1,252 nt of DNA, taken from the NCBI RefSeq assembly GCF_003334405.1, contig NZ_QOWM01000046.1; one strand, 5' to 3'. The position numbers were made by a program, and so were the translations under genes. Origin of the DNA: Escherichia coli. Its GTDB lineage: Bacteria > Pseudomonadota > Gammaproteobacteria > Enterobacterales > Enterobacteriaceae. Below are positions 1 through 1,252 of the stretch, piece by piece; the first letter of the stretch is position 1; every line of letters begins with the position of its first letter. Below the pieces are notes generated by a model. It was not told where the DNA came from and searched no databases. It was given only the letters and a program-made list of their open reading frames with translations.

Positions 1-98
1 CACATGCTGAGGGTGCTGTCCGGGTGCAGCTCCGGGTCGGGCAGGCGGTTACCTGCCGGGTCTGTGGCATACGGGATATCAATGCCCAGGTTACATAT
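1..98 (-). CDS. 5' portion of a probable orphan Rhs core fragment (YD-repeat-encoding), start-less, continues beyond window start
   Basis: Minus-strand translation from about 98 toward 1 gives ...ICNLGIDIPYATDPAGNRLPDPELHPDSTLSM..., containing a YxxDxxGxRL match to the YD-repeat consensus. GC jumps from about 26% to about 66% (59/90 by hand count over 1..90) at about position 90, matching Rhs core composition. Frame is open from the immunity stop (123..125) to the window edge with no ATG; orphan rhs fragments downstream of immunity genes are a known feature of Rhs loci. Confidence 0.5.
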   Translation of the reverse strand, partial: MCNLGIDIPYATDPAGNRLPDPELHPDSTLSM

Positions 99-122
99 AA
101 TAATAAGAGCAATTAACTTAAT

Positions 123-449
123 TTATTTGTTTATAATGCGCTTACTTAATACAAACCATTGAATATACCCTCCTGACAGAAAATAAAGCCATATTATTAT
201 CGCCATAATATACTTACTATCAATCCTTACGCCAATAATGTCTGATACAGCCCCTATAAATATTAGAGCAATAAAGAATACTATGCCTGTTGGAAAACAT
301 ATTACCATCATTCCATAAGACATGAGACTAATTAACTCGCTCACATCACGAGTGGAGTCTAATAGTGAAAGTCTATGCATGGAAAAGAATAGTATTAAAA
401 GCGATAAAGCCAGCCATATAGCTCTGAATAAAAAAATAATATATTTCAT
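123..449 (-). CDS. ybfB: Small integral membrane protein (108 aa, about 3 TM helices); presumptive cognate immunity protein for the Rhs CT toxin
   Basis: ORF 449..123 with stop TAA at 125..123. ATG 449..447 overlaps the toxin stop (TAATG). GGAG Shine-Dalgarno 7 nt upstream (complement of 457..460). Three hydrophobic stretches: approx aa 4-24 (LFRAIWLALSLLILFF), 45-68 (GMMVICFPTGIVFFIALIFIGAV) and 81-101 (IMAIIIWLYFLSGGYIQWFVL). Position directly downstream of the rhs CT is the canonical immunity slot. AT-rich (26% GC by hand count over 91..190). Symbol is tentative, from recollection of the E. coli rhsC-ybfB arrangement. Confidence 0.78.
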   Translation of the reverse strand: MKYIIFLFRAIWLALSLLILFFSMHRLSLLDSTRDVSELISLMSYGMMVICFPTGIVFFIALIFIGAVSDIIGVRIDSKYIMAIIIWLYFLSGGYIQWFVLSKRIINK

Positions 450-1252
450 TACATCACTCCGGTGAATACAAATCTAATAAAACGTCCAATGTTATTTCCG
501 GAGCACTTCATCTTACATGTTTCTAAAGAATCATTAGACCAGTCTTGGCAGTTTTTAAATAGCCCTAAATTTATAGGTGTGAATATATCAGGCAATACAG
601 AATAACGCGGCCTTACCTCTTTAAACTTCCCTTTTAAACAGTTCTCCACACAACTATTATCGGTTTCAACGAGGTCACAACGGCCAGCAGCTTCTTTTGT
701 ATCATTACTTGCTTTACCTGGCCCCCATAGACCATCTCCTTTTGATTCTCCCCGTTGGTCTTGGCCACCACAAGTATAGTCCCCTTTACCATCTGGGACA
801 CAAAGATATTGATGATAGAACGGATTCCCCCATATATCTGGACCGCTTCTTTCACCAGTTCCGCCCATTGAATGCAGTGGCTTAATGCATTTTAGTGTTT
901 CTAATCCTAATGGATCTATATTTGAGATCGGATTCAACGGATACTGATAAAAATTCCATCCCCCTTTCAGCCCAATCGGATCCTGAGTGATATATCGCCC
1001 CTGCAGCGGGTCATAATAGCGGTGGCGGTTGTAATACAGGCCGGACTCCTCATCATACTGCTGCCCCGGCAGGCGGATAAGCTGCTGCAGCTGATGCGGG
1101 TTCTCTTCATTCAGCAGGTTGCCCCATTCATCGTATTCTGCGCACCATTCTGTTGTCCCTTCCTTGCTGATAAGGGCCAGCGGCAGGCCGCGATGGTCGC
1201 AGTGGTACAGGTGGATTTTTCGCGCCGGCGTGTACACCGGGTCCATCTGGTT
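449..1252 (-). CDS. rhsC: Rhs family YD-repeat polymorphic toxin, C-terminal portion (5'-partial; gene continues beyond window end). Contains end of conserved Rhs core through DPLGL (916..902) followed by variable C-terminal toxin tip (901..452), stop TAA 451..449
   Basis: Minus-strand ORF is open to the window edge (codons 1252..1247 read N-Q before the tracked ATG at 1246..1244, so that Met is internal). Translation [24 protein letters not shown]...[45 protein letters not shown] is the hallmark C-terminal end of the Enterobacterial Rhs core, terminating in the PxxxxDPxGL demarcation motif. About 58% GC across 1081..1200 (hand count) versus AT-rich sequence after the motif. Paralog symbol is tentative (E. 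coli rhsA/B/C share this core); chosen because of the 108-aa membrane ORF plus orphan fragment downstream. Confidence 0.88.
452..901 (-). other. Variable C-terminal toxin (CT) domain of the Rhs protein, about 150 aa, Cys-rich and Gly-rich, function unknown
   Basis: Sequence immediately after DPLGL: [24 protein letters not shown]...[18 protein letters not shown]. Nine Cys in 150 aa including two CxxxC pairs (CVENC, CKMKC). Sharp drop in GC relative to the core. Position after DPxGL is where Rhs toxins carry their polymorphic effector domain (established architecture). Confidence 0.8.
457..460 (-). promoter_or_regulatory. Shine-Dalgarno (GGAG) for the immunity gene, embedded in the last codons of the toxin CT
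   Basis: Minus strand reads ...CACCGGAGTGATGTAATG...; GGAG sits 7 nt before the ATG at 449..447, good spacing for translation initiation and coupling. Confidence 0.55.

Follow-up and report, generated by a model that had tools for sequence, protein, structure and literature searches.

A start-less rhs core fragment behind ybfB in Escherichia coli as a probable boundary between the expressed rhsC module and a displaced orphan tip

Introduction

Orphan Rhs modules represent stored diversity of a widespread bacterial competition system, in which the attached tip decides which neighbours are killed and the retained immunity genes decide what a strain survives. Main and orphan rhs of Salmonella LT2 share a 522-bp repeat with 95% identity, and recombination over this repeat, after duplication of the locus, gives a chimeric full-length Rhs protein that deploys the orphan toxin (Koskiniemi et al., 2014; PMC3967940). 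Salmonella orphan tips are also expressed from internal promoters. Transcription start sites were located 89 nt upstream of the motif in both main and orphan rhs, a CTG start gives low levels of orphan protein, and the weakly, internally translated tips act like toxin-antitoxin pairs (Starsta et al., 2020; PMC7043789). For the enterobacterial rhs genes a tip-displacement model was put forward (Jackson et al., 2009; PMC2935791). Poole et al. (2011; PMC3150448) reported orphan modules that lack initiation signals.

Here, a stretch of 1,252 nt of E. coli DNA (contig NZ_QOWM01000046.1), referred to as the window, was analyzed with emphasis on positions 1..122, where an immunity gene is followed by a fragment of an rhs core. 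The fragment is already known: it is an annotated pseudogene in K-12 and part of a textbook orphan Rhs module at the rhsC/ybfB/ybfO/ybfC locus, and nothing about it is new in kind. A literature search for 'ybfO' identified no paper dealing with the fragment as such. As in STM0291/STM0292 of Salmonella Typhimurium LT2, a start-less core fragment with a new tip and an immunity gene stands directly behind the main immunity gene, and a direct repeat of the core would permit recombination between main and orphan copies. This repeat is twice as long as that of Salmonella (1,044 nt at 97% versus 522 bp at 95% identity), whereas the tips and immunity proteins of E. coli and Salmonella LT2 are unrelated, and recombination and internal expression have been demonstrated experimentally in Salmonella only.

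The arrangement also resembles the model of Jackson et al. (PMC2935791), in which an incoming tip with core homology pushes the resident tip downstream and arrays of dissociated tips are formed; likewise, an ancestral tip that has been displaced in some strains is found attached in others. Added to that model here is a case in which the same junction occurs at two chromosomal rhs sites and a different tip has been displaced at each, and the present data fit either a circular intermediate or a linear fragment that recombines through the core on both sides. Similar to the orphan cdiA-CT/cdiI modules (PMC3150448), the fragmentary tip keeps its demarcating motif and some conserved sequence upstream of it, has no initiation signals and is followed by its cognate immunity gene, which is assigned here by position. 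Unlike the CDI systems, in which CdiA carries VENN, Rhs proteins carry the PxxxxDPxGL motif, and the secretion route also differs.

Results

The window covers the 3' end of rhsC, ybfB and the start of ybfO

The window is the reverse complement of the 3' end of K-12 rhsC, ybfB and the start of ybfO, with 99.4% identity to MG1655 (counterpart at about 732,975-734,224 of NC_000913.3) and an identical junction sequence. Among 5,426 complete E. coli genomes, 3,888 matched the window with identities up to 99.9%, and at least 80% of the window was covered in 2,537. The near-identical genomes used below were 99.4-99.9% identical to it (K-12, 99.4%; best matches, 99.7-99.9%). The window and the K-12 ybfO/ybfC locus therefore represent the same locus, and the differences are strain-level SNPs, e.g., A67 in YbfB where K-12 has T67; at a few core positions of the main copy the base of the K-12 orphan is found.

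The rhsC 3' end (1252..449), ybfB (449..123) and the orphan fragment (92..1) share the minus strand. The 3' end of the main rhsC core occupies 902..1252, where the gene runs off the window, and includes the DPLGL codons at 916..902; this part contains a match to the Pfam family RHS (PF03527, E = 5.8e-15). It is followed by the variable C-terminal tip of RhsC (449..901, minus strand), which comprises 150 amino acids with nine cysteines and ends with a stop codon at 451..449, and by ybfB (123..449, minus strand), which encodes a hydrophobic protein of 108 amino acids in the position of an immunity gene after RhsC. The stop of rhsC shares bases with the start of ybfB (TAATG, window 447-451), and the ybfO stop and the ybfC start overlap by 4 nt in K-12 (L003 8651-8654). 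In both pairs, the overlapping stop and start codons form an arrangement typical of translational coupling of toxin and immunity genes.

The piece after ybfB is labelled by PGAP as 'RHS repeat-associated core domain-containing protein', incomplete and missing its N-terminus (pseudogene), and the same piece is the pseudogene ybfO (b0703; rhsO) in the K-12 record; ybfC is the next gene in both annotations. No Pfam or NCBIfam family was assigned to the RhsC tip, the ybfO tip, YbfB or YbfC, and matches were limited to the RHS core domains.

The spacer behind ybfB leads into a copy of the rhsC core

The minus-strand ORF 449..123 (108 aa) ends with TAA at 125..123, and the same frame continues as IKLIALIIICNLGIDIPYATDPAGNRLPDPELHPDSTLSM without a further stop, while the two other minus-strand frames past ybfB contain stops. 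The earlier note had described a start-less rhs core fragment on the same strand directly after the immunity gene and in its frame, with the single TAA between them, and both statements proved correct. Positions 77..1 aligned with nt 2695-2771 of K-12 rhsC (codons 899-924) at 97.4% identity (75/77; E = 2.7e-33), and matches to other E. coli cores end exactly at window position 77. The change in base composition is sharp, with 25% GC in 101-200 and 60% in 1-100, and on a finer scale 17% in 122..93 and 68% in 77..1.

The AT-rich intergenic spacer itself extends over 93..122 (30 nt, minus strand). Between it and the core copy at 1..77 lies a patch of degraded core similarity (78..92, minus strand), which reads AACCTGGGCATTGAT where the core has AATCTGGATATCCGC in a base-by-base comparison; at the protein level, NLGIDIP in the patch corresponds to NLDIRIP in the core (NLGID versus NLDIR). 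The ybfB stop is thus separated by 30 nt from the first core-like bases and by 45 nt from solid homology, so that the spacer of about 25 nt proposed earlier was right in being AT-rich and too short in length.

No match at E ≤ 1 to an Rfam family was obtained in the junction spacer, and a structured RNA or recoding signal was rejected. A consensus promoter and terminator scan identified no site on the minus strand of 1..122, and its overall counts equalled the shuffled expectation. The exact 54-nt junction pattern was absent from the one-genome-per-species representatives outside E. coli; this search took in species representatives, and non-representative strains lie outside its scope. The plus-strand ORF 4..162 (52 aa), which runs antisense to ybfB and the orphan, was ruled out by the minus-strand RHS_core match (E 1e-230).

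The 5' end of the orphan has no usable start signal

In the frame shared by ybfB and the orphan, no ATG, GTG or TTG occurs in 122..6. An in-frame ATG is present at 5..3 (minus strand) and corresponds, by coordinate mapping, to the start of ybfO (b0703) in the K-12 record (734220). It is an ordinary Met codon of the core, as the main RhsC core also reads ...LSMWPDN. Pairing with the anti-Shine-Dalgarno sequence at this ATG was -3.2 kcal/mol, compared with a mean of -2.85 ± 2.5 over all positions of rhsC as background, while values of -6.1 and -6.0 kcal/mol were obtained for ybfB and ybfC. The earlier statement that no ATG is present holds for 122..6 and fails at 5..3; an obvious Shine-Dalgarno sequence is indeed missing, since pairing at this ATG is at background level.

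The 5' end of the orphan is without a usable start signal. The fragment is probably carried on read-through transcripts from upstream and left untranslated from its 5' end, and an analogous situation was described for a CDI orphan region (Poole et al., PMC3150448). The term 'silent' should not be presumed for it, because Salmonella orphan tips have internal promoters and are weakly translated (PMC7043789).

A second tip and ybfC follow in near-identical genomes

The continuation of the orphan to the left of position 1 was taken from near-identical genomes. There, the orphan core goes on for 348 codons up to YQYPLNPVQYIDSMGL, a Pro-to-Ser variant of PxxxxDPxGL, which is followed by a tip of 152 amino acids and by ybfC. 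The second DPxGL-type motif that had been predicted for a leftward extension was found in this Ser form, and a putative further toxin-immunity pair, as expected beyond position 1, was present as the 152-aa tip and ybfC in every near-identical genome inspected. The ybfO tip shows no similarity to the RhsC tip. YbfC has 189 amino acids, its gene occupies the position of an immunity gene and overlaps the orphan stop by 4 nt; both tip and ybfC lie outside the window.

The orphan repeats nt 2695-3738 of rhsC over 1,044 nt with 97.2% identity and no indels, and its core frame begins at the first base of codon 899. It thus lacks the first ~900 codons, among them those for the N-terminal delivery region and for most of the shell. 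When the translated orphan core was compared with the NCBIfam RHS_core model, positions 908-1261 of 1261 were matched with E 1e-230, which corresponds to the C-terminal 28% and leaves no competing plus-strand gene for the region; neither of the refuting outcomes named in the earlier note was observed. Against the full-length RHS core family NF041261, the orphan scored 768.9 bits over positions 908-1261 only, below the curated cut-off of 2000 bits, and it is a fragment and no full member of this family.

Main and orphan cores differ by 12 synonymous and 13 non-synonymous codon changes, which shows no clear purifying signal. All three uninterrupted orphan copies inspected (K-12, BL21 and 23CRST029) have an intact ORF of 507 codons. 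In strain 1223 an IS3 element splits the orphan core ~620 nt past the junction (L015 5079-7860), and ybfC is frameshifted in EDL933. Because of these two cases, upkeep of the orphan and of ybfC is not universal across strains.

Behind this junction, at least two different tips occur in nature. For the DNA studied here, a tip of the ybfO type is the more likely of the known tips beyond position 1, because at the one polymorphic site of the arm the window agrees with K-12. In K-12 ybfO, this tip is preceded by PLNPVQYIDSMGL (L003 8145-8192), with Ser for Pro, instead of the canonical PxxxxDPxGL. The Ser variant was also found in 7/7 full-length Rhs genes checked with this tip, six of which are intact ORFs, and therefore does not reflect decay of the orphan. 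Taken together, the fragment starts in the core frame without initiation signals and carries a motif with an unrelated tip, a small ORF stands behind it, and the tip is attached to a full-length core elsewhere, which are the features by which an orphan module is recognized.

The ybfO tip is orphaned in some strains and attached to RhsC in others

The ybfO tip together with ybfC was present in 3,518 of the 5,426 complete E. coli genomes, the junction in 2,661 and the RhsC tip with ybfB in 2,536. Roughly 860-980 genomes therefore carry the ybfO tip without the junction (857 when the junction count is used, 982 when that of the RhsC tip with ybfB is used). Both states are common in E. coli: the tip is an orphan in about 2,660 genomes and lies off the junction in about 860-980. 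In an evenly spaced sample, 15/60 records had the tip under a feature named 'RHS element core protein', the label of full-length genes.

In all six of these genomes that were inspected (6/6), the kdp/ybfA...ybgA/phr site holds a full-length RhsC with the ybfO tip; ybfC follows immediately, and ybfB is absent there. EDL933, PF9285, 99E2750, 2021CK-01361 and F8111-1SC3 encode an intact RhsC of 1,399 amino acids, and in JE86-ST02 the gene carries an internal stop.

Other states of rhs genes were encountered as well. In WCHEC96200, a 96%-identical ybfO-type tip with its immunity gene is located on a full-length Rhs at a third chromosomal site, the rhsB site on the side of the nik operon (L006 3284-8037), and further downstream at this site NTF2-fold and DUF6258 immunity-like ORFs and yibA are found. 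The rhsC gene is damaged in the B-lineage, e.g., in BL21(DE3) (L002 6449-8258), where most of the N-terminal part is missing, and in 23CRST029 it is annotated as missing its C-terminus (L001 6890-8539); both strains retain ybfB, the junction and the orphan.

Diagnostic SNPs and a second rhs site point to recombination through the core

In PF9285, 19/20 diagnostic sites between nt 2758 and 3678 have the variant of the K-12 main copy, and starting at nt 3706 the variant of the orphan copy is found. The one deviating site is nt 3246, where the K-12 main copy differs from every other sequence compared. A switch between main and orphan variants is also present in 2021CK-01361, between nt 3021 and 3246. 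Such a switch is the pattern that a single homologous crossover within the 1,044-nt repeat would leave. The SNPs are compatible with either direction of the reaction, because the same trace is expected from insertion and from excision and because cores of different strains are visibly mosaic. PF9285 could accordingly be either a deletion derivative or a pre-insertion ancestor, and single crossovers are hard to prove because of the mosaic Rhs cores.

In 88-3493 and F8111-1SC3, the RhsC tip and ybfB are located at the rhsA site (yibF...yibH). The end of ybfB, the spacer, the patch and the core arm of this copy are the same as in the window apart from one SNP, and the orphan that follows carries an RhsB-type tip and yhhH. 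Since the same junction thus stands at the rhsA site ahead of a different tip, the tip, immunity gene and core arm appear to have spread between rhs loci as one cassette. The comparison further indicates that the junction was made once and then spread via the core homology on both sides, displacing whichever tip was resident.

F8111-1SC3 has both arrangements at once: at the rhsC site a full-length RhsC carries the ybfO tip (L012 1272-5471), and at the rhsA site the RhsC-tip/ybfB cassette with the junction lies behind an N-terminally truncated rhs (L013 5127-6452). Within the window, the main-copy core at ~1100-1252 has K-12 orphan-type bases at several diagnostic sites, as does the best-matching strain (K-12: ISTEGTTAWYAEY). 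These orphan-type bases suggest that gene conversion has taken place, either between the main and the orphan copy or between different rhs loci.

Discussion

At positions 1..122 the expressed module of rhsC tip and ybfB very probably gives way to ybfO/rhsO, a displaced orphan fragment from the C-terminal part of an Rhs gene. This arrangement may have come about as follows. Incoming DNA consisting of a core arm, the RhsC tip, ybfB, the spacer and a second core arm would have recombined through core homology with a resident full-length rhs gene. The resident ybfO tip and ybfC would have been pushed downstream by this event and would be untranslated there as Rhs protein. The 1,044-nt direct repeat would let RecA-type homologous recombination interconvert the two states, and excision or deletion would re-attach the orphan tip to the full core, by which the deployed toxin would change. 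YbfC could be translated from read-through transcripts, because its gene has its own Shine-Dalgarno sequence and no terminator-like site lies between it and ybfB within the window, and could then protect against strains that deploy the ybfO-type toxin.

That the orphan tip may recombine with the main rhs gene, as a spare tip that could be attached to it, had been proposed before. This idea is supported, because natural strains carry the tip on full-length RhsC at the same site and because such recombination has an experimental precedent in Salmonella (PMC3967940). The earlier observation is confirmed and its interpretation supported. Whether 1..122 is part of a discrete transferable cassette is evenly balanced. 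Such a cassette would consist of the RhsC tip, ybfB, the 45-nt spacer plus patch and the 1,044-nt core arm, would not be the broken end of a resident gene, and would have been inserted by core-homology recombination at at least two rhs sites (rhsC and rhsA), each time displacing a different resident tip. If this is true, the cassette junction would be a population-level marker with which tip exchange can be traced, and insertion versus excision polarized, across E. coli.

Two other readings concern translation across the junction. With only one stop between ybfB and the orphan and no other in the frame, read-through of the TAA could fuse YbfB to the orphan Rhs fragment, and the shared frame would then be functional. 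The earlier note had called the shared frame a 1-in-3 chance event, and chance remains a sufficient account when the open spacer is included: multiplied by the probability of about 0.28-0.41 that a shuffled spacer contains no stop, 1/3 becomes roughly 0.1. Among the stop codons of E. coli, TAA gives the most efficient termination. Moreover, the two other immunity-to-orphan junctions of K-12, yibA-yibJ and ybbC-ylbH, are both out of frame (in frame at 1/3 loci), and their orphans begin at quite different core positions, so that these junctions appear to be unconstrained. As the junction seems to be a single inherited unit copied between loci, its recurrence is no independent sign of selection, and no recoding RNA family was detected. 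The common frame looks like an incidental product of chance, and a functional fusion is considered extremely improbable. It is also highly improbable that ybfO is an independent gene starting at the ATG 5..3 and encoding a protein of 477 amino acids, as in older annotation of K-12. This ATG is in frame and ybfO begins there in the K-12 record, but the same Met codon lies inside the main RhsC core, its anti-Shine-Dalgarno pairing is at background level, and core homology reaches at least 72 nt upstream of it. In the 477-aa product the N-terminal delivery region would be missing, as would about two thirds of the shell, and both the current K-12 record and PGAP call a pseudogene missing its N-terminus.

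Further downstream, the orphan could be expressed from an internal promoter and a start just upstream of PxxxxDPxGL, giving tip and immunity protein in the manner of a type II toxin-antitoxin pair. The 5' end in the window would play no part in such expression, which would add to, and is compatible with, an origin as a displaced fragment. The start sites, CTG start and low-level orphan protein of Salmonella (PMC7043789) argue for it, as does the E. coli orphan ORF, whose 507 codons are intact in K-12, BL21 and 23CRST029. On the other hand, the promoter scan gave no site on the minus strand of the corresponding main-copy region, roughly 940-1040 (that of the orphan itself lies outside the window), and the orphan is interrupted by IS3 in strain 1223; internal expression is therefore regarded as distinctly unlikely. 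The fragment could instead be a pure relic, the decaying leftover of one insertion that serves neither as a toxin reservoir nor for immunity, and the pseudogene annotation, the IS3 element in strain 1223, the ybfC frameshift in EDL933 and the 12 synonymous versus 13 non-synonymous codon differences are consistent with this. However, the ORF of 507 codons is intact in all three uninterrupted copies, the repeat still has 97% identity across its 1,044 nt, both arrangements occur commonly in E. coli, and ybfC retains a good Shine-Dalgarno sequence, which makes a mere relic unlikely. The displaced fragment, with a tip that may be re-attached to the full core, is the preferred explanation.

Small features of the two proteins in immunity position may bear on where the toxins act. 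YbfB is small and very hydrophobic, and the N-terminus of YbfC, which lies outside the window, resembles a signal peptide (MKRVLFFLLMIFVSFGVIADC). This is only a hint that both toxins, the RhsC tip and the ybfO tip, might act in the cell envelope.
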